Positions 30,623-62,123 of a stretch of 64,000 nucleotides of DNA are shown in pieces. Position 1 is the stretch's first letter. Each line of letters starts with the position of its first letter. A program made the translations under genes and the position numbers. A model generated the notes under the pieces. The model saw only the letters and a program-made list of their open reading frames with translations. It made no database searches and was not told the DNA's origin. The DNA comes from an uncultured Pseudomonadales bacterium (GTDB taxonomy: Bacteria > Patescibacteriota > Microgenomatia > UBA1400 > PJMF01), in the NCBI GenBank assembly GCA_964607285.1, contig CAZSJW010000005.1, positions 9,349 to 73,348 of the forward strand, read 5' to 3'.

Positions 30623-32239
30623 ATGCAAACACTTCCCTACACTAAGGTATCCAACTACGAAGGCCGCAAGGGCGAAGTCAAGAAAGTAGTCCTTTTATAT
30701 TCCGGTGGGCTAGACACGTCAGTCATGCTCAAATGGATACAAGATGAGTACAACGCAGAGGTAGTTGCATTGACTATAGATATCGGCCAGCAAGCCGATG
30801 ACTTGGAAGCAATTCGCCAAAAAGCCATCAAGCTGGGTGCAGTCAAAGCAATGGTCATAGACGCTAAAAACGACTTTGCCTACAACTACATCGCCAAAGG
30901 TATCAAGGCCAACGCAAGTTATCAAGGTCGCTATCACCTGAGCACCCCTCTCGGCCGTCCGCTGCTCGCTAAACTGGCAGTCCAAGTCGCCCGCGAAGAG
31001 AACTGTGACTGTATCGCCCATGGCTGTACGGGTAAAGGCAACGATCAAGTTCGCATTGAGGGTTCTGTGCTGACATTAGCACCAGAGATGAAAATTATTG
31101 CCCCAGTTCGAGAGTGGAGTATGGGACGTGATGAAGAACTGGTATATGCAAAAAAACACAACATCCCCGTCAAACAAACCGTCGACTCGCCCTACTCCTA
31201 CGATGACAATATGTGGGGAGTGACTGGTGAGAGTGGTGAAATTGAGAATCCCACACTCATTCCTCCACTCGAAAAAATCTTGCAAGTTTGTAGCATTGTA
31301 GAAAAAACGCCCAACAAACCTGAGTATGTAAAAATTCAATTCATCAAAGGATTACCTGTTTCGGTCAACGACGAAGCCATGAATTTAACAGATCTGATTT
31401 TGCACCTCAATCTGGTAGGTGCCAAACACGGCGTGGGTGTCACCCATCACATTGAGGATCGCGTAGTCGGCCTCAAAGTCCGCGGTCTCTATGAAGCACC
31501 AGCTGCCGAAATCATCATCAATGCTCACTTCAACCTAGAAAAATACGTTTGTACCCGGGTTGAAAATGAGTTTAAATCAGAAGTGGACACCAAGTGGGCG
31601 TATCTCTGTTACGGCGCACTCTGGTATGAGCCGCTACTTGATGATCTGAATGCTCTGATTGATCATGTCAACGAAAAAGTCAGTGGTTTGGTTACAGTCA
31701 AACTGTTCAAGGGCGTTGCCGAAGTTGTGGCTGTGGAAACTGCCAACACAATTTTTGACGAAAAGCTGGCAACATTCATGAAAAACTCAGCCTTCAATCA
31801 AAACGCTTCACCAGGATTTATCGAAATTTACACTTTGCAAATGCGCATGGCACAGCACAAGGAACGGTTTGCACTCCTCACCATTGGCGAAGAGAAAAAT
31901 AAAAAGGCCTTCCTGCCTGTAGTAGAAGAACTCGTGAAACTTGGGTTCAAGTTTTATGCCACCGAGAACTCACATGCTTTTTACAAGCAGCATGGCATCG
32001 AGTCCGTGCTCCTGCACAAAATGTATGCCAAACAGGCGCCCAAACTTGAGGACGCGATGAAGCAGAATTTGTTTGATTTGGTGATAAACCTGCCATATGC
32101 CAAGCAAACTGACGAGTCTAAAAAAGACGAGGCTACTATTCGAAAATGGGCAGTGGCAAATGAAATTCCACTTATCACCGATTTACAGACAGCGCAAACG
32201 CTGGTTAGTAAGTTGCAGCAGCATATGATTGTGCGGTAA
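30623..32239 (+). CDS. argG: argininosuccinate synthase fused to a C-terminal MGS-like domain
   Basis: ArgG motifs VLLYSGGLDTSV, AHGCTGKGNDQVRIE and PVREWSM. An extra ~120-aa C-terminal domain (LLTIGEEKNKKAFLPVVEELVKLGFKFYATENSHAFYKQHGIESVLLHK...DLVINLPYAKQTD...) resembles the methylglyoxal-synthase-like allosteric domain at the C-terminus of CarB. Total length is 538 aa against ~400-450 for a classical ArgG. Confidence 0.85.
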   Translation: MQTLPYTKVSNYEGRKGEVKKVVLLYSGGLDTSVMLKWIQDEYNAEVVALTIDIGQQADDLEAIRQKAIKLGAVKAMVIDAKNDFAYNYIAKGIKANASYQGRYHLSTPLGRPLLAKLAVQVAREENCDCIAHGCTGKGNDQVRIEGSVLTLAPEMKIIAPVREWSMGRDEELVYAKKHNIPVKQTVDSPYSYDDNMWGVTGESGEIENPTLIPPLEKILQVCSIVEKTPNKPEYVKIQFIKGLPVSVNDEAMNLTDLILHLNLVGAKHGVGVTHHIEDRVVGLKVRGLYEAPAAEIIINAHFNLEKYVCTRVENEFKSEVDTKWAYLCYGALWYEPLLDDLNALIDHVNEKVSGLVTVKLFKGVAEVVAVETANTIFDEKLATFMKNSAFNQNASPGFIEIYTLQMRMAQHKERFALLTIGEEKNKKAFLPVVEELVKLGFKFYATENSHAFYKQHGIESVLLHKMYAKQAPKLEDAMKQNLFDLVINLPYAKQTDESKKDEATIRKWAVANEIPLITDLQTAQTLVSKLQQHMIVR

Positions 32240-49336: not shown

Positions 49337-49353
49337 AAGACAGTTACTGTCTT
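49337..49353. terminator. short perfect hairpin (AAGACAG-TTA-CTGTCTT) between convergent genes, overlapping the stop codon of the minus-strand gene
   Basis: A 7-bp inverted repeat 2 nt after the eno stop. The stop of the 1104-aa minus-strand gene lies within its 3' arm. Confidence 0.4.
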
Positions 49354-52300
49354 ACCTGCCTTGCTGTTTGGGCGGCTTCGGTTTGTCCCGCTTATCTGCT
49401 GCCTCCCTGATTCTGTCCGCTGCACGCTTTTCATCTTGCCGTTGTTTAAGCTGCCTCTCAACTGCATCCTGACGTTCTTTTCTATCTGCTTCAGCTACAG
49501 CTCTATCCGCTGCCTCTTTCCGCTTTTTCTGCTCGTCTAGTTCCCGTTGTTTTTCTCTCTGTTTTTCCTCCAAAGCCTCACGTACCTTTTGCTTTTTTCT
49601 TTCCTCTAGATCTATAGCATCCTGACGTTCCTTTGCTTTGCGCCTCTCTTCCGCAGCCTCTGCTTCACGCCTGGCTTGTTCACGTGCTTCTGCTGCTACA
49701 ACTATTGCAATGGCTTCTTCTGCTGCCCGTCTAGCTTGGTTTGCCAAACTCTCTGCAGATGCCGCCTTGGTGATGACACTCTCTACGAAACTGACTGCAG
49801 CTCCTCGATTAGGCATCGGCGGCAATGCATCTGTCGCTGCATTCATGTATGAATTTCCTGCTCCTTTTGCCCTATGGTCGTTGACTTTATTTTCTGCTTC
49901 TCTAATTGCCGATCTTGCCGAACCTATGGCACTATCAGCTCTATCTAATAACTGCTCATACTCTCTTTTATCCTCAGCAAGATACTCCAACACTTGGCGC
50001 ACTTGCTGTCTTTCTAATCTTTCGTACGCATCAATCGTGTTCTGTAGCTCAGATGCAAGCTGCCTATCTTCAAAACGATTCAGCCGCTGCTCTGAGTTTT
50101 GGAGCTCTGTGAGCTGTCCTTTCATTCGCCTATCTGCCTCCATTGTCCGTATAGAAACAATGGCATCCTCTTCTGCTGCAACTTCTCTTGAAGTATTCTG
50201 AACTATTCTTACAGCATCTGATTTAGCAGCTTCTAACTCCGAGTACAACGATTTTATTTCAGAAATCTGCTGATTTTTCTCTTGCTTTGCTACTATGGCA
50301 ATTCGACTTGCCTCGTTGGCTAAGGAGTTTGCTGTAATAAATATTTTGCTTACGCCTTTTTCTCTCGCCTCTGTAAGTAGCCTTCTAGCTTCATCCAGTT
50401 GTGCATCTACTTCAGGACCAACCATCCTATTTAGGAACGGATCAGATCCAGCAAGTGTTGCAGATGAAACATCTCGTTCTGCAGAGCTAATAGCAGATGC
50501 GTATCCATCACGTGCTGACTCGACAAGCTTATGGTGACTTTGTAGTTGGTCCATCAGTGACTCTGCTGTAACGAAAGATCGCTCCATCTTCTTTATTGTT
50601 GCTTCAGCTGTAGTAAATGCTTGCTGCTCCATTGAATTTTCTCTACCTGCTTGGCTGGCAAGATCGTTCTCGGATGCAGGATCGTCAAACACTTCTTGCA
50701 GCAGTTTACTGGCATTTGCGAAATGAGATTCAAATCCCCTATAGTTCTCAGTATGGTAGTTCATTTCTAAATCGCTCCACAGTGCCGCAATTGTTGTGGA
50801 ATGAAGCGATTGCGCCAGAGATACACTCGAGCTTAATCTTTGCAATGCAGCTTCATTTCGCTGCCTGAGCTCTCTAATCGTCTGCATTTCCTGAACACAA
50901 GCATCTGCAGTATCCTTGATGATATTGACTGACTCTAGTGCTGTATCCCACTGTCCACTTCTACCGAGCTGCACTGCCTGATTGATGTAGCGTGCAACAG
51001 CCTCTTTAGTTTCCGCAATGTGAGACTCACTAAACCCTTGGCCTGTAAACTCAAGTAGTGCAGTAAACTTTGCATCACGGTACTGTAGAGCACGTTCTAA
51101 CTCTCTGCAGTACTTTTCAGTTGTCTCCAGCTGCTCTGAAGCTCTATCTATCAAAGCACTTACTTCTGAGCTTGGAGCGTGCTGCCTGAGTGCATCTGAT
51201 ATTTCCTCAAGTTGCTTCAGCACAGGTGAAAGAAACGCGGCAGGCTCACTGATGTCCTCAGACCAGTCTTGAAACCTTTGGGGTTGTTCTGTTTGTGCAG
51301 CTTGTGCAGCAGTAATCAGGTTGGGAAACTTGGTAAATATACTCTTTTCTTCTTCAAGTTGCTGGATTATTTTTGCGAGTAAATCACTGCCAAGCAGCAA
51401 TTTTTTATTTTCAGTGCCAAAACATTCTGATGCTTCTTTCAGTTTTTGATAAATGTCTGAGAGCAATTCATCTGCAGGGCCAATATACTCTGGGTGCTTT
51501 GTATGTAACCTGCTTACCCAATCCGTTGTAGTTGCTACCATAGATTTTACCAAGTCAAAACGCGCATTTGCTTGATCAATCTGATCCTTAATCACATTAA
51601 ACTGGCCGATGGTTTTTTCAATCTCATCCAGAATATTTTGCAGGAAATTATAGAGATCTGTCTGCTCAATGCGAACTGCATCAATCGCAGCTCGTTTGCT
51701 AAAGTAGCCTACTTTAGTCGTTTCAATATAGCTGTACGCTTTATTGATAATACTGACAATACTCAAGAAGTTTGTATACCTATTTTGTACAGAAACTGCT
51801 TCCTTAGGATAGCTTTCCGTATATATTTCCTGTAGTAACCTGTATGCCTTAGAAGGCGTATCCCACTCCATGTGTTTTACAAATTTTTCATAAAGTGGTG
51901 CAATTTTTTTATTTAGTTCAGAAATTTGAGCAAAGACGGCCCTTCTGCGGGTAAACTCAGCTTTCCCATACAGTGCCATTGTAACTAGTCCAATAATTCC
52001 CAAAGCTCCCCCCACCCACGACACTACTTTCTCTGGTCGTACGCCTGTTTCAGGAACACCCACAGAAGTCTCTAGCTCAGCCTCCGATTCTTGCTCAGCC
52101 ATGCTCGCTTGTATTTCTTCTGCAAAATACTCCAGCGCAAACCTGACAGCAGCTTGGTTGTTTTCCACACTACCCCTGCCTGCTTGACCATCGATCATCC
52201 GCTCTGCCAAATCCAGCTCGTGCTGTTCTAAGGCCGACCCCCAAGTATTACCAGCATCACAGGCAACACCAGTCACGTTCCCCTGATCAAAAGCAATAAG

Positions 52301-52666
52301 ACAGGCAACTACGTCTGGTTTAATATCACCACTGCTGTCTGTAAAACCAGTATCAATAAGTTCTTTTGTAAGAGCAGCTTCTGCTGACAGAATTTGTCCT
52401 ACATCAGACCTGCTGACTCCGTCTGTAGTGAATACTACAACCTGCACACCAAGATCAGTTAGTTTTTCGATCGGTACTTTGAGTTTAGAGAAAAAATCAC
52501 TACCTAAAGTTCTTGCATCATCAATCAAGTAAAACTCTCCACCTGGTCTCTGCTGCTCCTGCCCACCCCGCTGAGCAATCATCTGGTTTTCAGATTCGCG
52601 TGAACCAAAGAACTCTGTTGCTGGAAGGTTGTCCATAAAACCAAAATAATCTTCAGATGAGTGCAT
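49352..52666 (-). CDS. giant coiled-coil protein with an N-terminal TPM-like domain, one TM helix and a K/E/R-rich C-terminal tail
   Basis: An 1104-aa protein. The N-terminal ~180 aa (GVQVVVFTTDGVSRSDVGQILSAEAAL...DVVACLIAFDQGNVTGVACDAGNTWGSALEQ) fit the TPM (TLP18.3/Psb32/MOLO-1) pattern as I recall it, followed by a TM segment (VVSWVGGALGIIGLVTMALYG). About 800 aa of heptad-like helical sequence follow, ending in ~100 aa of REQARREAEAAEERRKAKERQD... charge repeats. Confidence 0.6.
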   Translation of the reverse strand: MHSSEDYFGFMDNLPATEFFGSRESENQMIAQRGGQEQQRPGGEFYLIDDARTLGSDFFSKLKVPIEKLTDLGVQVVVFTTDGVSRSDVGQILSAEAALTKELIDTGFTDSSGDIKPDVVACLIAFDQGNVTGVACDAGNTWGSALEQHELDLAERMIDGQAGRGSVENNQAAVRFALEYFAEEIQASMAEQESEAELETSVGVPETGVRPEKVVSWVGGALGIIGLVTMALYGKAEFTRRRAVFAQISELNKKIAPLYEKFVKHMEWDTPSKAYRLLQEIYTESYPKEAVSVQNRYTNFLSIVSIINKAYSYIETTKVGYFSKRAAIDAVRIEQTDLYNFLQNILDEIEKTIGQFNVIKDQIDQANARFDLVKSMVATTTDWVSRLHTKHPEYIGPADELLSDIYQKLKEASECFGTENKKLLLGSDLLAKIIQQLEEEKSIFTKFPNLITAAQAAQTEQPQRFQDWSEDISEPAAFLSPVLKQLEEISDALRQHAPSSEVSALIDRASEQLETTEKYCRELERALQYRDAKFTALLEFTGQGFSESHIAETKEAVARYINQAVQLGRSGQWDTALESVNIIKDTADACVQEMQTIRELRQRNEAALQRLSSSVSLAQSLHSTTIAALWSDLEMNYHTENYRGFESHFANASKLLQEVFDDPASENDLASQAGRENSMEQQAFTTAEATIKKMERSFVTAESLMDQLQSHHKLVESARDGYASAISSAERDVSSATLAGSDPFLNRMVGPEVDAQLDEARRLLTEAREKGVSKIFITANSLANEASRIAIVAKQEKNQQISEIKSLYSELEAAKSDAVRIVQNTSREVAAEEDAIVSIRTMEADRRMKGQLTELQNSEQRLNRFEDRQLASELQNTIDAYERLERQQVRQVLEYLAEDKREYEQLLDRADSAIGSARSAIREAENKVNDHRAKGAGNSYMNAATDALPPMPNRGAAVSFVESVITKAASAESLANQARRAAEEAIAIVVAAEAREQARREAEAAEERRKAKERQDAIDLEERKKQKVREALEEKQREKQRELDEQKKRKEAADRAVAEADRKERQDAVERQLKQRQDEKRAADRIREAADKRDKPKPPKQQGR

Positions 52667-52853: not shown

Positions 52854-54989
52854 ATGGTTTCCGAAGATACTTCATTCATAAACAATCAATCAGATGCAGC
52901 ATATGAAATACATGTGCATGGCAGGCCTGCTGCTTTCTTAGATCAAGCAAACAATTCAGTACAACACCTGCTTGAAAAGGACTTTAAACGAAGAGAATTT
53001 TTAGTACAAGGTTTAGAGCGTTGGCTACAAAAAAAATATGGCAATGAAACGCTAAAGCTCAAACCAATTATGGAGCTGTTTGCAGAACTTCAAAACTACT
53101 ACAATAGTTACAAAGTACTTCTCTCCCCAGAAAGAATTGTACCTCAGCAGTACCAAGAGTTTCAAGGTTTTCAGACTGGTGTGACGATTCAATCACAAGG
53201 AAAATCAAGAAAAGAGAGGAATATAGGAAACGTTGAACTTAATGACCTTCACTTTAGAATCGGAGTCTTAGCAATTGAAATTGGTGAGGATGCCTCAAAC
53301 AATATTAAACTTGCTAACTGTCAAGTTGATCATACCGTATGGCGATTGTATAACTTACTATACCCTGACAAACTCTATGCTGAACTTGCGTCCCGAGATA
53401 CGTCTGGTACCAATACAAGTCTTGAGTTAGCCAGACGGTTCTCTCGTGCTGTCTTTCCTCGAGAATTTATTGCTATGCTCAATGCAATTGAACTCGGCAA
53501 TCATGACTTTACCGTTCATGCACTCTTTGATGACAATCCAAATATTTCATCATCTGCTGGAGATATCAAAAAAGACTACAATTTGAGCGAAATTCCAATC
53601 ACTGCAGTTATCAACCAGATTGATGGTAAAGCTATCTCTCAGCCACCACTTTCTACAAAACCAGACTCCGATGGCACATTCAGCACGATGAACATCTATG
53701 AAGTCCTTGCATTCCATCTCCATGCCATGGCATGGAAAGAGGTTTTTTCCAAACAGCCCGAAGGTCCAAAGATAAAAAAAGCACTACTTAACCAAATCAA
53801 ATCTCTTCATTATTCGTTGTATGGCAACGAGTCAAACCAGCAATCAGTCTTACAGCGAGCCTTATCTACACCCGCAATTCAAAACGAGTTTACACCCAAA
53901 CAAACTCAAGACGCTGTGGGATACGTACAGAAAGTACAACTTAACTTCCTGTTTAACATACTTGATCCTCAGGACCCTGAAGTGGCACGAACGCTTGCGG
54001 AACTCGGTATTCATCACACCGTAAGTGACAAGCAAAGAATTTTACATCACGAAAATCTACTTGATGAACTGAAACTTGATGTCTCTAAACTACTTATTGA
54101 TTTTCATGATCGACTCAAAGAGGCCAAGCCTGAACATGCTAAGAAGAAGCTAGTTAAGCAGGCTGAGAAGCTATTGGCTGAATTAGGGAGCGACAAACTG
54201 ACGATCAGTAAACAACTAGATGAAATGCTACCAACTATTGAAAAACTACTACAAGAATCTTTTTCTATTACAGATAGAAAATTACTTGCCCACATTTTCT
54301 TTGCTACAGATCAGTCAGAAAAAGCTCTGAAACTTCTGATAGATACTAGTTTTAACACCGTTGATTTTGGAGCTCCAATCGCTGTGCAAGTTAACCGATG
54401 CCTGAATATACTCGTGGAATCTAGCCAAAATCTGCCTGTCGATGTACTTGATTTTGCAAAACGAATTGCTGTAAGAATCAAGCAACTGCCTACTGAAAAT
54501 AAACCCACCATTGAGGAAGTTGATAGTATCGTCTCGAAAATTACACTAAGATTAGGCATGTTATCACTCGACGGTGAGATACTACCTATCACGAACTCAT
54601 TACTTGAGTCGCTCGATCTTACTGAAATACAGAAGCTACGCACTATTCTCTCTACCATGGAGTGGTATGCCAAATCAGTTGAACCCAGCCAAGTCTGCTC
54701 AATACTGGCAGATGTAACAAAACGGTACTCAGAACTTAACCACCCTGACTTTTTACTAGACACAGATCCAGAAGGAGATCCAGATAATCATCGTGAAGCA
54801 AGACTTTTTATGAATATTGCCGAACATTACTTTGACATTGGCCAGTTTGCTGAAGCCAAACAAGTTGCAGATTTTGCCTTACGTGCAGTCAATCCAGCGG
54901 TAAAAATTCAAGGCGTGTCTTTTTCTCACCTGATAGCGAAGCTCAACAGGATATCAGCTGAGAGCGAGCAGCGACAGGAAACAAATTAA
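52854..54989 (+). CDS. large hypothetical protein (711 aa), no recognisable domain
   Basis: Long ORF transcribed divergently from the TPM coiled-coil gene. Helical and Leu/Lys/Glu-rich. Confidence 0.6.
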   Translation: MVSEDTSFINNQSDAAYEIHVHGRPAAFLDQANNSVQHLLEKDFKRREFLVQGLERWLQKKYGNETLKLKPIMELFAELQNYYNSYKVLLSPERIVPQQYQEFQGFQTGVTIQSQGKSRKERNIGNVELNDLHFRIGVLAIEIGEDASNNIKLANCQVDHTVWRLYNLLYPDKLYAELASRDTSGTNTSLELARRFSRAVFPREFIAMLNAIELGNHDFTVHALFDDNPNISSSAGDIKKDYNLSEIPITAVINQIDGKAISQPPLSTKPDSDGTFSTMNIYEVLAFHLHAMAWKEVFSKQPEGPKIKKALLNQIKSLHYSLYGNESNQQSVLQRALSTPAIQNEFTPKQTQDAVGYVQKVQLNFLFNILDPQDPEVARTLAELGIHHTVSDKQRILHHENLLDELKLDVSKLLIDFHDRLKEAKPEHAKKKLVKQAEKLLAELGSDKLTISKQLDEMLPTIEKLLQESFSITDRKLLAHIFFATDQSEKALKLLIDTSFNTVDFGAPIAVQVNRCLNILVESSQNLPVDVLDFAKRIAVRIKQLPTENKPTIEEVDSIVSKITLRLGMLSLDGEILPITNSLLESLDLTEIQKLRTILSTMEWYAKSVEPSQVCSILADVTKRYSELNHPDFLLDTDPEGDPDNHREARLFMNIAEHYFDIGQFAEAKQVADFALRAVNPAVKIQGVSFSHLIAKLNRISAESEQRQETN

Positions 54990-55001
54990 ATCTCGCAGTG
55001 G

Positions 55002-55565
55002 TTACTTCAGAGATACATTACTTATGTTTCCAAGTAGTAATTTTGCAACACTTGCAACTGCTTGCTGGATGTTTCGGATCTTGTCAAAAGAATACACATC
55101 TGCACTTACTCTTTCTGACATTGCCAGTAACGTATTTGGATGTTCTAGTTCCATATGTGTGACAATATTTTCTGCTCGCCGCTCTACATCCGGAAACTCA
55201 TTTCTCATCTCATCCAGAGTACCTGCTGCTCTAGCTTCTGCTAAAAGCCACACACAGTTCGCGTCTCGAGTTTCGCCATAGGCGGTTCTAAAAAATGCTG
55301 CCACCTGTTCATACCCTACTGGTGCTACTTTACCCGCATCGATTGCCAGGGCTGCTTCCAAATTCATAACAGTTGAACCATTGATTAGTTCTTCAGCCGT
55401 AAGTCGCAAACCCTCGGGTTTTTCTGCATCATTAGAAATTTCTGATGTAGAACTAAATGGCTCTCGATCTGCCATGATGTCAACCACTTTTAAGCGATTT
55501 AATCGGTTATCGCGTTCTGGTGCGGCTGCACCAGCAGGAGCTTTCTCTCCTGGTCTATTTGTCAT
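55002..55565 (-). CDS. hypothetical protein (187 aa)
   Basis: ORF convergent with the 711-aa gene. Ala/Gly-rich N-terminus, no motif. Confidence 0.5.
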   Translation of the reverse strand: MTNRPGEKAPAGAAAPERDNRLNRLKVVDIMADREPFSSTSEISNDAEKPEGLRLTAEELINGSTVMNLEAALAIDAGKVAPVGYEQVAAFFRTAYGETRDANCVWLLAEARAAGTLDEMRNEFPDVERRAENIVTHMELEHPNTLLAMSERVSADVYSFDKIRNIQQAVASVAKLLLGNISNVSLK

Positions 55566-55766
55566 GTCGTTCAGTAACTCAAGAATTTTTTAAGTGGCTT
55601 GCCTGTCTGTCCCTTGAAGCGTGTGAACCCATCAATTCTCCAAGAGTGCTTTCACTTTGCATAGTTGTTTCCTTTTTTCATTGAGTACCTAAGCTCAATC
55701 GTACCATATTTTCACAGTAAGACCTAAAAGTAATCATCTCTGTCAGTTCATTTACTGTATTAGTAA

Positions 55767-58700
55767 GTGCAGTTCTGCCACCATATTGCTACACTCAATG
55801 TAGCCTATATGGAAACTACCACAGAAGAGTATACACAAAAGATTGCAAGCATAGCGTCAGATGAGCTGTCAAAAAGAACAGTGGGTGTTGCATTTATTGC
55901 CTTGGAACAAGGAGGCGTCAAATTAACCGATGAGTCGTTGCAGTTACCACCTGAACTGCAAGCAAGGATCACAAACTTGCTAGGAATTACAGAATTGATT
56001 ACAGAGCTTCGTCACTCCTTGTTTGAACAAGCCTTAAAAAGCGAAATTACCGATCAAAGTAAGTTATATCCCGATCCTGTAGCAATACCAAATCAAGAAA
56101 CATTCGTACAAGACCTTTTGGGGAAAAGTCCGAAATTGTTGGAAAAATTGGCTGAAATCACGGCAAAAGCAAGCGTTTGTCTTACGGTATTACAAGATAC
56201 ACCTCAACATCCAAAAGTATCTGCAATCAAAACTCAAATGGCTGCATGGAAAAGCACTATTGATGCAGTTGCAAGCTCCTTATGTGCAAATGAAACAACT
56301 GAACAGAACTTCTACACGCTCGTTCAAAATAATATTTCTCTGCTAAGAACTGCATCAGAGAAACAGCTGAATCCCACAAACCCACACGGTAAAAAAAATC
56401 GCGGGGAAAGTTATGCTGAGAAATTTACTAGATTACTGCAGATTCCAAGAGCGGTTGATCTCATAGCAGCAGGCACGGATGCTGGGCGTGCTAAAGAATT
56501 TTCAGACAAGCTTATTGATGAGTATTTAGAGACTGCATTTACATTGAACGCTGTCAAAGTACTACACAGAATTCAAAGCCCGCTTACGCTAGAGGGCAAA
56601 GTTAGTAAGTTATTTTCTTGTTTGCGCCAGCACGAGAGTGACCCTATATACTTAGAAATTATTCAAAATAATGGTATAGCAGTTGAGTTTGCAGCGTTAG
56701 GAAATAAGATCAAAAATATCAAGAATGCTGGGTTACTCTACAAAGATGAAAAGCAACAAATTCAAGATCTGAATGCAGCTTTTAAAGAAAAATGTACAAC
56801 AATTGTCGCGACATACTTTGAAAATAACCCAATAGATGAAGAAGTCATAGATCTTGTCTCCACAAAACAAAAACTCCGCGCATTTTTTTTACAATCTGAA
56901 GCACTACGAGCCTCGGGCTCAGATTCTGAAGAGTCAAAAGGCAAGATAACTAAACTTGATGAACAAATGCAAGAGCTGATGATACAAATTGCCAATAAAA
57001 TTGCCCGCATTTTCCCTCATAAAACCTCAACCAATCTCATTGACGTTATAGAAAATTCTGATGCAATCTGTGCTGGAAAGGTAAACATTTTGCTTGCGGT
57101 CTCTAAATACTTAGACCTAAATGCCCGAGCAAACTCGGTGAGAGAAATGATGATTCCAAGCAACAGTGGTCATGTCTGTTTAGAATGCGACCTACCAAGT
57201 GGCAAAAAATTAGTGATTGATGCTGATAGCTCTAATAAAAATAGGCTAGAATCTGCATCCACTACAGATCTTATTGCGTTGATTCGCAAAAACTCACCAG
57301 GTATCACCGATCAGGAACTAAAGTCTGCATTGCGGTATTATGACTTGGCAATACCAAACGCAAGTTCTATCCCATCCAATGCACGTATCGTGCTGTACAC
57401 TACTGAAGAAACAGATATTATCGCCGCAGATGCAGACCAAATAAAGAAATTCAAAAATACTCCCTACCACTTCATCAGACAAAATCCTTACTCAGGAATA
57501 AAGGAAGTCTGGAAAGCAAGCATTCCTTATCCTCACCATATTACGTTGCCTGATAGAGATGGCTACTTTCACATAAACTCTTCGTTCACAAATAATTCAG
57601 GACATTTTCTCGCTAGAGGTTATACAGAACTCGGGTTATATCTGTTTAAAAAACACCTAGCTATGAATCCTTACGATGTTAAAGCATATAAAGGAATTGG
57701 GGGACTGTTACCAAAAACAGAGATGCATACTTTCTTTGCCCAGGTAAAAAAAGAGCAGCCATCACTGTATTGGGACGGAATCAGTGTAGAACACGCAGTA
57801 CTGTGTGCTTATAACGCAATGTTTGATACCGCACTAGAAATCTTTGAACAAACAAAAGCTAAAAGCCCACTCCAATACTACAACAACTTATGGCAACTCT
57901 CTCTAGCAATACGAAATACTATGGGAACAGATGAGTATCAAAATATTACTAAACGAAAATCCAAAGTTAGAAGTTTGCTGCAAGAAGCAAAAAATGCAAA
58001 TCCCACACTTTTTTTCTCAAACTTGTCTAATCCAGAAGAACTTCTTCGTCTGTATGATGCTGAAGCTGATAAAGAGATCGCTATCTTAGAAGAATTGAAA
58101 AAAAATAACCCAAATGGTTTTTGGGATGAAGAACACACTATTCAGTTTTTTCAGAAGCTTCTGAAGCTGTATGCACAAAAGGGATCGAAAGACATTTCAC
58201 AACGTAGTACGGCAGAAAAGATGGCGGAGGAAATAAAAAATAAGCTAAGAGCTTGGTACGATAAAGGTATTTGCAACTATGTTTCTGAACTATACTTACA
58301 CGGGAGTATAAGAGACCCCGACCAAGCATTGTTAGTTCTTCAAGAGTCGAAAACTCATTCGCCTGCTACTTTTTTTAGCAAACCAGAAAATTGCAATCTT
58401 ATGATCCGTATCTATGAAGCACAGAAGGACTTTGCAGGTGCGATCGCTTTTTGTAATGAAGTAAAACAGCAAAATCCAAACTTATTTTGGACCTATCAAT
58501 ACACACCAATTCATGAAGTTTTAGCGGGACTACAAGTAAAAACTGGACTGATTGATACAGCGATCCATCTCTTTGAGGAAGCAAAATCAAAGAACAAACA
58601 TTTCTGGACTGCTTCATACAATGGAGGTTATGCTCAACTTGTAAAGTTATACGCTGCAACTCAGCGAATCCCTGAGGCACTTGCCTTATGTACAGAAGCG

Positions 58701-59141
58701 CAAACTAAAGATCCCAAGTTTATGAGTTCAGAAAGTGGGTATGGAGGGTATGTTCAGCTAGCAGAACTATTCGATTTGAGTGGTCGCACTAGTGATGCTA
58801 TCGAACTACTGCTAGAAGCTCAGCACACAGACACTCGGTTCTGGCAAAGAGAATACTTAAACCCAAACGTGTTTAAATTAGTTGAGTATTATACAAAGAC
58901 AAATCAACTAGCTGAAGCTATAGATTTCCTTGAACAGCTCAAAGTAAAAAATCCTAACTACTTAGGTACCGACTACTATACGCTGTGTGAACTTTACGAA
59001 AAAAACGGTCAACACGCTGAAGCAATACAATGTAAAGCAGACTTACTTCGCACATATGAGGCACTCAGCCTATCAAATCCCAATGTATTCAAGCAATATG
59101 CGGCAAAAGTTAATAGATTGAAGGCAATTGCCTTATCCTAA
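55767..59141 (+). CDS. very large repeat protein (1124 aa) with a C-terminal array of ~36-40-aa TPR/Sel1-like repeats and a possible transglutaminase-like Cys-His-Asp core
   Basis: The C-terminal ~450 aa contain at least 8 repeats of the form A(I/L)xLxxEAxxxNPxxFW (AIELLLEAQHTDTRFW, ALALCTEAQTKDPKFM, AIHLFEEAKSKNKHFW, AIAFCNEVKQQNPNLFW, LLVLQESKTHSPATFF, and others). Mid-protein, ICAGKVNILLAVSKYLDLNARAN...SGHVCLECDLPSGKKLVIDAD places a Cys, a His 43 residues later and an Asp 17 residues after that, as in transglutaminase-like cysteine proteases. An alternative start is the ATG at 55809. Confidence 0.6.
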   Translation: MQFCHHIATLNVAYMETTTEEYTQKIASIASDELSKRTVGVAFIALEQGGVKLTDESLQLPPELQARITNLLGITELITELRHSLFEQALKSEITDQSKLYPDPVAIPNQETFVQDLLGKSPKLLEKLAEITAKASVCLTVLQDTPQHPKVSAIKTQMAAWKSTIDAVASSLCANETTEQNFYTLVQNNISLLRTASEKQLNPTNPHGKKNRGESYAEKFTRLLQIPRAVDLIAAGTDAGRAKEFSDKLIDEYLETAFTLNAVKVLHRIQSPLTLEGKVSKLFSCLRQHESDPIYLEIIQNNGIAVEFAALGNKIKNIKNAGLLYKDEKQQIQDLNAAFKEKCTTIVATYFENNPIDEEVIDLVSTKQKLRAFFLQSEALRASGSDSEESKGKITKLDEQMQELMIQIANKIARIFPHKTSTNLIDVIENSDAICAGKVNILLAVSKYLDLNARANSVREMMIPSNSGHVCLECDLPSGKKLVIDADSSNKNRLESASTTDLIALIRKNSPGITDQELKSALRYYDLAIPNASSIPSNARIVLYTTEETDIIAADADQIKKFKNTPYHFIRQNPYSGIKEVWKASIPYPHHITLPDRDGYFHINSSFTNNSGHFLARGYTELGLYLFKKHLAMNPYDVKAYKGIGGLLPKTEMHTFFAQVKKEQPSLYWDGISVEHAVLCAYNAMFDTALEIFEQTKAKSPLQYYNNLWQLSLAIRNTMGTDEYQNITKRKSKVRSLLQEAKNANPTLFFSNLSNPEELLRLYDAEADKEIAILEELKKNNPNGFWDEEHTIQFFQKLLKLYAQKGSKDISQRSTAEKMAEEIKNKLRAWYDKGICNYVSELYLHGSIRDPDQALLVLQESKTHSPATFFSKPENCNLMIRIYEAQKDFAGAIAFCNEVKQQNPNLFWTYQYTPIHEVLAGLQVKTGLIDTAIHLFEEAKSKNKHFWTASYNGGYAQLVKLYAATQRIPEALALCTEAQTKDPKFMSSESGYGGYVQLAELFDLSGRTSDAIELLLEAQHTDTRFWQREYLNPNVFKLVEYYTKTNQLAEAIDFLEQLKVKNPNYLGTDYYTLCELYEKNGQHAEAIQCKADLLRTYEALSLSNPNVFKQYAAKVNRLKAIALS

Positions 59142-59857
59142 TGCTTTTTCTTGAACTGGAACACTATATAACTTGGAGTTCCTTTTGCATGAATTTTGTT
59201 GGCGATTTCGACAGGAGTATCTGCTGATAATGGGCACTCATCCAAAGCAGTTAGCTGCAAATTAGCACGATGTGCAGCTTTCATGTAGTCGGTGAATGTC
59301 CAGTGATAATCAGTGAATACAAAGTCTGAGTCACCTAACTTTCGCATAACCTTGTACTTGCTGCCTGACTGAAAGTATCCTTTGAACTCTGTCTCAATAT
59401 CCGTTCTTCCAAAAAACTTTTTTCCCATGTATCCATCGAAACAAGGATGACCTGAGCTTACAATCAATGTTCCATCATCTAGCAGTAAATCTGCTCCTGT
59501 TTGAAACACAGCGTTGAAGGCAGCTTTCGTTGCAACTGAAGGCAGCAACATATTACATAGTACAACGTCAAACATGTCACTTCGTTTCAATTCTGTAGCA
59601 TCACCAAGTAAAAACGTTCCGTCAGGATGTCTCCTTTTTGCCTGAGCAAGCATGTCCTCTGAAATATCAATTCCTGTGTACGAGTACCCTTTGTTTCCAA
59701 CAAAAGAATATAGGTCGCCTGTGCCGCAAGCCAAATCTAACAATGATTGCTTGCCCTTTGCATCTGCTAGTAAGCGATCAAGCGCAGGAAAGAGTGTGTA
59801 AAATTTATCCTGAGGTTGCTTGTAGTTTTTTACTGAACTGCCATAATATTCTTCCAT
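59138..59857 (-). CDS. class I SAM-dependent methyltransferase
   Basis: LLDLACGTGDLYSFV (motif I), GIDISEDML (motif II/post I) and FDVVLCNMLL (motif IV region). It overlaps the preceding gene by 4 nt. Confidence 0.75.
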   Translation of the reverse strand: MEEYYGSSVKNYKQPQDKFYTLFPALDRLLADAKGKQSLLDLACGTGDLYSFVGNKGYSYTGIDISEDMLAQAKRRHPDGTFLLGDATELKRSDMFDVVLCNMLLPSVATKAAFNAVFQTGADLLLDDGTLIVSSGHPCFDGYMGKKFFGRTDIETEFKGYFQSGSKYKVMRKLGDSDFVFTDYHWTFTDYMKAAHRANLQLTALDECPLSADTPVEIANKIHAKGTPSYIVFQFKKKH

Positions 59858-59913: not shown

Positions 59914-60276
59914 ATGCTTAATGCGAACGAGGTAACTGCAGTAAACTGGGATGATGATCCCACGCAATTGTACATAGGCCCTGATGAAGCTTTTAGCAGA
60001 CTTGCCAGCAGATGTTTAGAGGTCATCAGTAGTGAAAAGCTTGAAGAGCTAATGCAGGGATATAGTAAGTTTAATGAACCAATCTACATTCGGGGCCTTA
60101 GTTCTTATCACAAAGATGATAACTTCAAACTCAAAGCATTTTTTAGGGTTATCCCCGAGTATTTTGCAAGTGCACTGCAAGTAGGCTTGTCACAGGATCA
60201 GGCGCAAAAGCTAATTCTTACTGTTCTAGAAGCCAGTCCATATGTTTTGATCAACCAGAGAAAACATTTCTACTGA
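59914..60276 (+). CDS. hypothetical protein (120 aa)
   Basis: First ORF of a three-gene plus-strand run transcribed divergently from the methyltransferase. Confidence 0.45.
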   Translation: MLNANEVTAVNWDDDPTQLYIGPDEAFSRLASRCLEVISSEKLEELMQGYSKFNEPIYIRGLSSYHKDDNFKLKAFFRVIPEYFASALQVGLSQDQAQKLILTVLEASPYVLINQRKHFY

Positions 60277-60305
60277 TTAGTCGAGCATTTAGAAATGCAA
60301 AATCA

Positions 60306-60962
60306 ATGCACCTACCCCTCCCTAAAGAGGATTTTGTTGCACTGTGTGATTTTTTTGCTTCGGCTGCTAAGTATGGAGTTGATGATTCTTCTGCGTATGC
60401 GTACTCATTAGCACAACGCATGGGACTATCTACTTCTCAGAGCATACAATTGATCTCCAAACTAATAGACGCTGATGGAGCAATCAGTGGCTATACATTT
60501 GGCTCATTTTCTAGAGCATTACGAACACTGGTCCTTTCGGATGTTAAACCAGAAAGTGTTGTCAGAATGTTCGATGTATTAGGTGGTACAAGACCGTACT
60601 TGCACCAAGACAAGTTTGATGCTTTCCAGAACATGGTGACGTTTGATTGCCCACTGCATAGAATTTCACCACAAGAACTAATGGATATGCTGCTGAGTGC
60701 TGTCGATTCAGGAGAAACCATAGAAGCAGTGTTAACTCGATTTCAAAATAGTGATCAAAAGCAACTATCTGGAACATTGCCTTTTGAAGTATTCAGTAGT
60801 CAATCTGAAAAAAACCAATATTTTATACAAAAACCAGGAAAACTTGAACTTGCAGCTTTGCCCTATCAGACAAAGAGGTCACTGCAAAACGGACATCGAG
60901 ATTTAGAGGAAATAGCTATAGCGTCATCGGCTGAAATGCAAGAAGTTGGAGAGGGTTTTTAG
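60306..60962 (+). CDS. hypothetical protein (218 aa)
   Basis: ORF 30 nt downstream of the previous one, with no motif. Confidence 0.5.
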   Translation: MHLPLPKEDFVALCDFFASAAKYGVDDSSAYAYSLAQRMGLSTSQSIQLISKLIDADGAISGYTFGSFSRALRTLVLSDVKPESVVRMFDVLGGTRPYLHQDKFDAFQNMVTFDCPLHRISPQELMDMLLSAVDSGETIEAVLTRFQNSDQKQLSGTLPFEVFSSQSEKNQYFIQKPGKLELAALPYQTKRSLQNGHRDLEEIAIASSAEMQEVGEGF

Positions 60963-61040
60963 GTATATGATCCTGATACACAGACTTGGTATTCGCTGGG
61001 AGGAAAATTAGAGGTCAAACACAGTGGAGTAAGACATACT

Positions 61041-61532
61041 ATGGCGAACTATGATGTGAGTCAACTGAGCGCAAAACCATTGTTATTTCACTGTCACCCA
61101 GAAGAGTATGAAATAATGGTCATGCCCCCAAATAAATCAAACATTTGCCCCGAACAATATAGAGATCAAGTTACAAAATTTTTCAGTGCAACACCGAGTG
61201 GAGCAGATTATGCCGTGATTGCTGATTTTATAGAGCAAGCTACCAGCCCTATGACCACTCGTTCCTTTATTGTGCATTCTCTGGGTACAACAGAATGTAC
61301 CTACACACCTGATCTTGAGTTGCTTAATAAAATGTCACTTTTTTCAAGATGGCTGAGAGATCAGGTGCTGTTTGATTTTAACTGGAACGAGCTAGGAGGT
61401 AGAGATATAGCACCTATGGAACTAGTAGAGCACTTGGTAAGCAGACTGAACAGGAAACTACCTCCAGGTTTCAGCATTTCACTATACCCACCTGGCCATA
61501 TTATTGACAACACGGATAAACCTCCAGCCTAA
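61041..61532 (+). CDS. hypothetical protein (163 aa)
   Basis: An ORF containing FHCHPEE and PSGADY segments. A JAMM-like reading was considered and rejected. Confidence 0.5.
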   Translation: MANYDVSQLSAKPLLFHCHPEEYEIMVMPPNKSNICPEQYRDQVTKFFSATPSGADYAVIADFIEQATSPMTTRSFIVHSLGTTECTYTPDLELLNKMSLFSRWLRDQVLFDFNWNELGGRDIAPMELVEHLVSRLNRKLPPGFSISLYPPGHIIDNTDKPPA

Positions 61533-62123
61533 CTACTGAAGGAGATCTATATCATTCCTAGCATTCACTGTATTGTTAGGTCTAAACTTATCATAGACTT
61601 TTTGTGCAGGTACTTTTAAGACACTAGTATCAACCTGCAAGATTATCGCATTGAACACTAACTTCCAAGCTGATAACGCCAGTGTTACCCCTAACGCATT
61701 TTCAATAAATGGCCTGCTTCCACTACCTGCCTGGACCGATAAAACATTTAAAATCTGAACAGGATTTGCCAAAAAAACCTGAGTAAAGTTGATAAGATGA
61801 CCTGCTGCTGCAATTCCCATTGAATTTCTAATGAAAACTTTGATTGCTGTAGACATAACACTAGCACTGTAAAATTTTTCTTCCAATGCTTTCGTTTCTA
61901 ATGCCACACTAACAATGTTTGCTATGCCAATCATAGCCACAGCAATCAGTTGCATTTGTTCATTGGATAGATGCTCACCTACTTCATGAACTAGGTACGT
62001 TAAAAAAGATTGAAGAGGAACCAATACTGGGAGTGAAATCGTCCCGATCGCACCAGAAATCACCAATTTTTCAGGATGAACTGCTTTTTTGGCAGCTTCA
62101 TATTTTTCTAAAAAACTTACCAT
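61533..62123 (-). CDS. hypothetical integral membrane protein (196 aa)
   Basis: Four to five hydrophobic segments and no motif. Confidence 0.5.
   Translation of the reverse strand: MVSFLEKYEAAKKAVHPEKLVISGAIGTISLPVLVPLQSFLTYLVHEVGEHLSNEQMQLIAVAMIGIANIVSVALETKALEEKFYSASVMSTAIKVFIRNSMGIAAAGHLINFTQVFLANPVQILNVLSVQAGSGSRPFIENALGVTLALSAWKLVFNAIILQVDTSVLKVPAQKVYDKFRPNNTVNARNDIDLLQ

Follow-up and report, generated by a model that had tools for sequence, protein, structure and literature searches.

The stretch of DNA considered in this work (hereafter the window) comprises 64,000 nucleotides of contig CAZSJW010000005.1 (assembly GCA_964607285.1, positions 9,349 to 73,348 of the forward strand), deposited under the name of an uncultured Pseudomonadales bacterium and placed by the GTDB in the Patescibacteriota. 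Three neighbouring open reading frames (ORFs) lie in its last fifth, encoding proteins of 711, 187 and 1124 amino acids (aa), the third of which, a probable transglutaminase-like enzyme with a long tail of helical repeats, is our main subject (Table 1). The window is ordinary chromosome, with housekeeping content including rpoD, dnaG, mutS, mutL, argG, eno and one tRNA-Asn, and the G+C content of its 52-64 kb region (0.39-0.42) is slightly lower than that found over most of its length (0.43-0.47). The sizes and coordinates of the three ORFs in the preliminary description, made from the sequence alone, are exact, with the 1124 aa counted from a GTG. Judging from sequence comparison, the true product of this ORF is probably 1110 aa long, since its database copy at NCBI (P0001, 1110 aa) starts where M15 stands and all of the 17 homologues described below align with it from M15 onward. 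The gene ends at 59136-59141, its stop overlapping by 4 nt the 3′ end of a convergent gene for an S-adenosylmethionine (SAM)-dependent methyltransferase (59138-59857). A scan for promoters and terminators returned a number of sites not above that of shuffled sequence.

Table 1. Features of the 52854-59141 region of the window, with residues numbered from the GTG of the 1124-aa reading
Feature	Position (nt)	Strand	Remarks
711-aa ORF	52854..54989	+	near-orphan, soluble protein
187-aa ORF	55002..55565	-	near-orphan protein
1124-aa ORF	55767..59141	+	longest reading, GTG start; probable true start ATG 55809 (M15), giving 1110 aa
N-terminal domain, all-helical, residues 15-383	55809..56915	+	family-specific; invariant columns, helical model
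Transglutaminase-like / papain-like alpha+beta core, residues 384-620	56916..57626	+	predicted; with two-helix insertion and C-terminal beta subdomain
Cys435 codon, predicted nucleophile	57069..57071	+	motif AICAGKVN; invariant in alignments A1 and A4; N-terminus of DSSP helix
His469 codon, predicted general base	57171..57173	+	motif GHV; invariant in A1 and A4; start of beta strand
Asp485 codon, predicted third triad residue	57219..57221	+	motif VIDA[ND]; invariant in A1 and A4; next beta strand
About 11 TPR-like helical repeats, 40-aa period, residues 667-1103	57765..59075	+	TPR_14/TPR_19, autocorrelation

By its sequence relatives, the 1124-aa protein is a member of a small but real, previously undescribed family, so far seen only in the candidate phyla radiation (CPR; Patescibacteria). 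It has 17 full-length homologues, 32-46% identical to it, from Beckwithbacteria, Dojkabacteria and other Patescibacteria metagenome-assembled genomes (MAGs), one of which bears the annotation Candidatus Beckwithbacteria. Searched against 1.84 billion representative proteins, a core profile (residues 384-620) finds 45 clusters at E <= 1e-3, of which 35 reach E <= 1e-10, and the family gene is found at 7 loci among 185,579 species-representative genomes, a count that rests on two exact peptide patterns. The MAGs with these loci are labelled Candidatus Beckwithbacteria, Patescibacteria group or Candidatus Dojkabacteria. Some third-party assemblies with the family gene carry instead the labels Pseudomonadales or Gammaproteobacteria, which we regard as unreliable. 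The genome to which the window belongs is, we infer, that of a member of the Patescibacteria (CPR). One record labelled Gammaproteobacteria (L008, 7295-10835 of the 691-kb contig CAYGEH010000001.1) holds a family gene whose homologues come from Patescibacteria; this gene is split near residue 254 across two reading frames, by a frameshift, as a pseudogene or through an assembly error. The word ‘orphan’, applied in the preliminary description to all three proteins, does not suit the 1124-aa protein, which has a small and clear family, and roughly suits the other two, which have one homologue each. A search of the literature turned up nothing specific on this architecture in Patescibacteria.

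Two alignments, one of 18 close sequences (A1) and one of 32 distant family members (A4), define what is kept and what is lost across the family. The closer members are ~900-1200 aa long, with long repeat tails, and the distant ones 480-950 aa, with recognisable TPRs in only about one third of them; the N-terminal motifs and the core are kept in all of the distant members. The window protein itself lacks the last ~70 residues found in most of its homologues, which consist of two further repeats and a conserved tail of the form ...A..GI.L (A1 columns 1150-1245).

Conservation within the core converges on three residues. C435, H469 and D485 are invariant in A1, and they are the sole invariant columns of A4, where the mean column identity is 15%. 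They are part of the motifs ICAG (434-437), SGHV (467-470) and IDAD (484-487), which the preliminary description had singled out as the signature of a transglutaminase-like cysteine protease; the motifs are indeed there, whereas the spacings of 43 and 17 aa given for them are not, the actual gaps being 29 and 13, so that Cys435 and His469 are 34 residues apart and His469 and Asp485 16. Around the triad the local motifs read eAxCaGK...LGlxaR, then H, then l.iDaNy, a pattern similar to the signature that Makarova, Aravind and Koonin 1999 gave for transglutaminase-like proteins.

Structure prediction, including the region around residues ~430-520 to which the preliminary description had pointed, leads to the same place. 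A model of residues 235-650 (pLDDT 82, pTM 0.80) and another of the trimmed core (384-620; pLDDT 76) both have the Cys at the N-terminus of a predicted helix and the His and Asp on consecutive predicted beta strands, as in the papain-like topology. In the trimmed model, DSSP assigns, in local numbering, a helix to 51-65 (with Cys at 52), a strand to 85-92 (His at 86) and another to 98-106 (Asp at 102). Among the structural neighbours are SseI, the C3 domain of PMT, Ceg10, SpvD and the vasohibins.

The third line of evidence is transitive. The Pfam model Transglut_core (PF01841) matches 6 of the 32 distant members, and when core segments are excised from distant members it matches 7 out of 10 of these at 17-23 bits. 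Its best match, in P0060, reaches 23.2 bits for a cut-off of 23 and covers profile positions 35-108 of 108, running from just before the Cys to just past the Asp. Conservation, predicted structure and the passage through distant relatives thus support a transglutaminase-like (papain-fold) Cys-His-Asp core, and the guess of such a core in the preliminary description is borne out by all three.

A number of observations weigh against this assignment. The window protein has no PF01841 match at E <= 1 in the Pfam scan, and searches of PDB sequences with the single protein and with the family and core profiles produced no match in the core. The Foldseek comparison to the PDB is not significant (best E 0.076), although its top matches are nonetheless SseI, 3isr and a vasohibin. 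In the trimmed model the pLDDT falls to 41-72 at the Cys and immediately ahead of it, and to 65-67 in the loop preceding the His, and the geometry of the triad is that of a predicted topology. The fold can also be non-catalytic, as in menin and Rad4, though these proteins have lost the triad. Finally, comparison of 10 related loci revealed no conserved gene neighbourhood, and nothing points to a particular substrate.

Behind the core comes the repeat tail. A BLOSUM62 autocorrelation over residues 840-1100 peaks at a lag of 40 (z = 6.3 relative to 500 shuffles) and again at the harmonics of 79-80 and 119-120, and the same procedure gives no comparable signal in the N-terminal and core regions. 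About 11 units can be laid out from residue 667 to residue 1103, and six of them fit strictly the consensus A[IL]x..E[A]..x[NSD][PKT]x[FY][WFL]; the degenerate repeats that had been noticed earlier, with a count of at least 8, are therefore real. Of the two kinships proposed for them, to TPR and to Sel1, the first stands and the second does not. Two TPR models pass their Pfam cut-offs in the window protein (TPR_14 with 42.6 bits for a cut-off of 23.5, and TPR_19 with 39.2 for 25), and the family profile matches OGT, kinesin-light-chain-like and designed TPR proteins in the PDB. Sel1 (PF08238), by contrast, has no match at E <= 1 in the window protein, nor does it figure in the list of families for the distant members, and only the repeat length (36-44 aa) would fit. 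As the period is 40 residues and that of the canonical TPR 34, the array is best called TPR-like and not a canonical TPR. The TPR matches are the only ones that scans of Pfam, NCBIfam, PADLOC and PHROGs with the three proteins and their neighbours returned for the 1124-aa protein.

Ahead of the core there is an N-terminal domain of ~370 aa which belongs to this family only, as neither Pfam nor PDB sequence searches find a relative of it outside the family. It has several invariant blocks (e.g., DEYLETAFTLNAVRVLDRIQRPL, residues 251-272), and residues 235-415 are modelled as helices with a pLDDT of mostly 75-95. On the other side, the strand with the Asp is followed by the two-helix insertion and then by a small beta subdomain with the invariant PYPHxxTxPDxDGxxxxNSS. 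Two more histidines, H418 (57018-57020, in IANKxxRxFPH) and H590 (57534-57536, in PYPHxxTxPD), are near-invariant even in the distant members, and are candidates for a second site that would bind a metal or a substrate.

Taken together, these features make it likely that the 1124-aa (probably 1110-aa) protein is a soluble, most probably cytoplasmic thiol enzyme, founding a new and very divergent transglutaminase-like family. The predicted topology and the nearest folds point to the superfamily, and the way the enzyme would work can be sketched from there. Cys435, at the N-terminus of its helix, would be activated by His469 and Asp485 on the neighbouring strands and would attack an amide or peptide bond in its substrate, a protein or a peptide, giving a thioester intermediate. 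This thioester could then be resolved either by water, in which case the protein would be a protease, an amidase or a deamidase, or by an amine, which would make it a transglutaminase or an enzyme of acyl transfer. The solenoid of ~11 TPR-like repeats and the helical N-terminal domain would serve as the scaffold that binds the substrate or a partner and sets specificity. As hydrolases make up most of the superfamily in bacteria, we lean towards hydrolysis (i.e., a peptidase or an amidase), a choice that sequence by itself cannot decide.

Where such an enzyme would act bears on the suggestion, made in the preliminary description, that its architecture is typical of effectors which intracellular bacteria secrete. 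None of the three proteins of the region has a hydrophobic N-terminus, a signal peptide or a transmembrane (TM) segment, the maximal mean Kyte-Doolittle value over 19 residues being 1.22 or less in all three; this maximum is 1.22 in the 1124-aa protein, compared to 2.04 for the single TM segment of the neighbouring 1104-aa protein. The search for translocation signals that had been proposed thus gave no Sec signal, with type III and type IV signals lying outside its reach. Neither the window nor the related loci have secretion-system genes near the family gene. The search for homologues in symbiont or pathogen genomes, also proposed, did find homologues, though these come from Patescibacteria MAGs and not from intracellular pathogens. 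With no secretion genes nearby, with a housekeeping context and with a core so well conserved (mean column identity 69%), a cytoplasmic enzyme is the default and the most likely reading.

An effector, secreted or injected, would be a protease or deamidase acting on host-cell proteins of a symbiont or episymbiont, with the TPR array mimicking host interaction domains. The presence of effector and toxin catalytic domains among the best structural neighbours (SseI, PMT C3, Ceg10, SpvD) and the rarity and patchiness of the family, of the sort typical of accessory functions, keep this idea alive at a low probability, and Patescibacteria are indeed thought to live attached to host cells. Nevertheless, it has to face not only the lack of a Sec signal peptide, of a TM segment and of any secretion-system or conserved partner gene beside the family gene in any locus, but also the company this gene keeps (eno, argS, ftsA-ftsZ and ileS), the strong conservation of its core, unlike that of fast-evolving effectors, and the fact that nothing marks the organism as intracellular. 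We therefore consider it unlikely, and the label of secreted effector should be dropped.

A bolder extension of the enzyme reading takes the whole ~600-aa module (the N-terminal domain, the core, the beta subdomain and H418/H590) as a protein-modifying machine specific to Patescibacteria, with a chemistry or a target new for the fold. In one possible form, its target would be a conserved protein of the cytoskeleton or the cell surface, in the episymbiont or in its host cell, which it would trim or cross-link while the repeats read the substrate. We mention it as a speculation of small probability.

Somewhat less probable still is that the fold serves another chemistry on a non-protein substrate, be it as an acyl-CoA-dependent N-acyltransferase, in the manner of the arylamine N-acetyltransferases (NATs) and GdmF, or as an RNA-associated enzyme guided by PPR-like repeats. 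The latter form draws on the fact that, among PDB sequences, the repeat region matches consensus-designed PPR proteins best (E 2.5e-18), and on faint matches to PPR (PF01535) in homologues. Designed consensus PPRs, however, attract any alpha-solenoid, and the window protein matches PPR_2 with an E of 0.012 and 16.1 bits, far below the cut-off of 30, whereas the TPR models pass their own cut-offs. Given this, and a period of 40 residues instead of 35, we read the PPR matches as generic solenoid similarity. As to the former, hydrolases and transglutaminases outscore NATs among the structural neighbours of the core. The least probable alternative, a non-catalytic scaffold in which the fold would be used for binding only (menin and Rad4/XPC being examples) and the whole protein would serve as an adaptor of helical repeats, is hard to reconcile with a Cys, a His and an Asp that are the only residues invariant family-wide, which is a signature of catalysis and precisely what menin and Rad4 are without.

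The likely enzyme does not seem to have partners encoded next to it. Comparison by tblastn of 12 window proteins to 10 related loci, along with all-against-all clustering of their ORFs, recovers the family gene as the only one in common, save for enolase in one locus, and a conserved operon around the family gene was accordingly rejected. In one locus (L013) the gene comes directly after argS, and in another (L014, 951-8060) it lies on the same strand as ftsA-ftsZ, four ORFs downstream of them and upstream of ileS and ftsW; in further loci it is next to unrelated metabolic genes. The vicinity to ftsA-ftsZ in L014 stands beside the presence of vasohibins, which are tubulin tyrosine carboxypeptidases, among the structural neighbours; it is seen in one genome only, and chance may account for it.

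The two ORFs upstream of the family gene in the window are probably real genes, of restricted distribution. Among 5.8 billion sequences the 711-aa protein has one homologue (P0020, 35% identity over 620 aa), and no domain, PDB relative, TM segment or signal peptide was found in it, save for a TPR below threshold at residues 642-672. For the 187-aa protein the same sequences contain a single, partial homologue (P0023; E 2e-14, with 37% identity over 52% of the query), whose gene context is unrelated, and the 187-aa protein matches no family and no PDB structure. Neighbours of 756 and 187 aa beside homologues of the family gene were considered as possible kin of the 711-aa and 187-aa genes, and found to be unrelated to them. 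Comparison of the 711-, 187-, 1124- and 1104-aa proteins revealed no paralogy. Since neither neighbour accompanies the family gene elsewhere and the proteins are unrelated to each other, the ‘cluster’ of the preliminary description denotes adjacency only, and the 711-aa and 187-aa genes are best seen as independent lineage-restricted genes and not as partners of the 1124-aa enzyme. PADLOC and PHROGs, run on these proteins and on those encoded around them, gave no defence or phage match.

Some other features of the window deserve a word. The gene ahead of these three (1104 aa, 49352-52666, - strand), which had been called a TPM coiled-coil gene, matches neither TPM nor any other Pfam family at E <= 1; its product has one clear TM segment (residues 214-232) and a highly charged C-terminal tail rich in Lys, Glu and Arg. 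Further downstream, at 59914-62123, are four small ORFs in a row (120, 218, 163 and 196 aa), of which the first three have no match in Pfam, NCBIfam, PADLOC or PHROGs and the fourth none in PADLOC and PHROGs, the only scans it was put through. The argG product (30623-32239, + strand) has the argininosuccinate synthase in residues 18-414, followed by a C-terminal extension of ~120 aa that matches the C-terminal domain of the large subunit of carbamoyl-phosphate synthase (E ~1e-14), an unusual joining of two modules of the arginine pathway.

Compared to known systems, the 1124-aa protein shares with the transglutaminase-like superfamily (PF01841, clan Peptidase_CA) the order Cys, His, Asp with spacings of 34 and 16, the predicted placing of the Cys at a helix N-terminus and of the His and Asp on adjacent strands, and motifs similar to C..fa...l.r.lG.paR / H.w.e /.D.t., with one distant member of its family that reaches the PF01841 cut-off. 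It differs from PF01841 members in that it and its close homologues have no match to that model, in the two-helix insertion and the PYPHxxTxPDxDGxxxxNSS subdomain that come after the Asp strand, and in the family-only helical domain ahead of the core. LapG, a calcium-dependent protease of the periplasm, is small and carries a signal peptide; against it (LapG/BTLCP, PDB 4fgo) the window protein is multidomain, more than 1100 aa long, without a signal peptide and 11% identical. To the effector domains of SseI, PMT-C3 and Ceg10 (PDB 4g29, 2ebf and 9b8d) it has no detectable sequence similarity; its accessory domains are others, and its family is one of Patescibacteria and not of intracellular pathogens, with neither a translocation signal nor a secretion-system context.

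The combination of a transglutaminase-like domain and a repeat scaffold is already known, from menin and from proteins of the SirB1/YchA type. Menin, to our knowledge, has no catalytic triad, whereas in the 1124-aa family the triad is invariant. As to SirB1/YchA, which combines Transglut_core2 (PF13369) and TPR_9, there is no PF13369 match in the window protein and none is listed for the distant members, and TPR_9 is found in only 2 of the 32 distant members. Given the failed PF01841 threshold, the lack of the LapG signal peptide and of the Leu-carbonyl triad of CPR-C4 and the vasohibins (see below), and the N-terminal and beta subdomains of its own, the family is outside every described family of the superfamily; it is nonetheless within a known superfamily, and no new class of system.

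A large part of bacterial diversity falls within the Patescibacteria, and the proteins specific to their lineages mostly lack an assigned function. For one family of this CPR ‘dark matter’ the present work offers a biochemical hypothesis, that of a thiol enzyme with Cys435 as its predicted nucleophile and a TPR-type domain for specificity; it sets the boundaries of the family at ~45 sequence clusters, and it removes the misleading label of ‘pathogen effector’. A precedent is CPR-C4 (PDB 7pjo), a vasohibin-like cysteine protease conserved in the CPR, which is a single-domain homodimer of 221 residues; its triad is Cys61-His93-Leu115(carbonyl), and it has a zinc site (PMC9108980). The window protein differs from it in having the canonical Asp, in being five times larger, in its TPR repeats and in the lack of any sequence similarity, and yet CPR-C4 makes clear that remote transglutaminase-like assignments in CPR organisms can be experimentally confirmed (PMC9108980).

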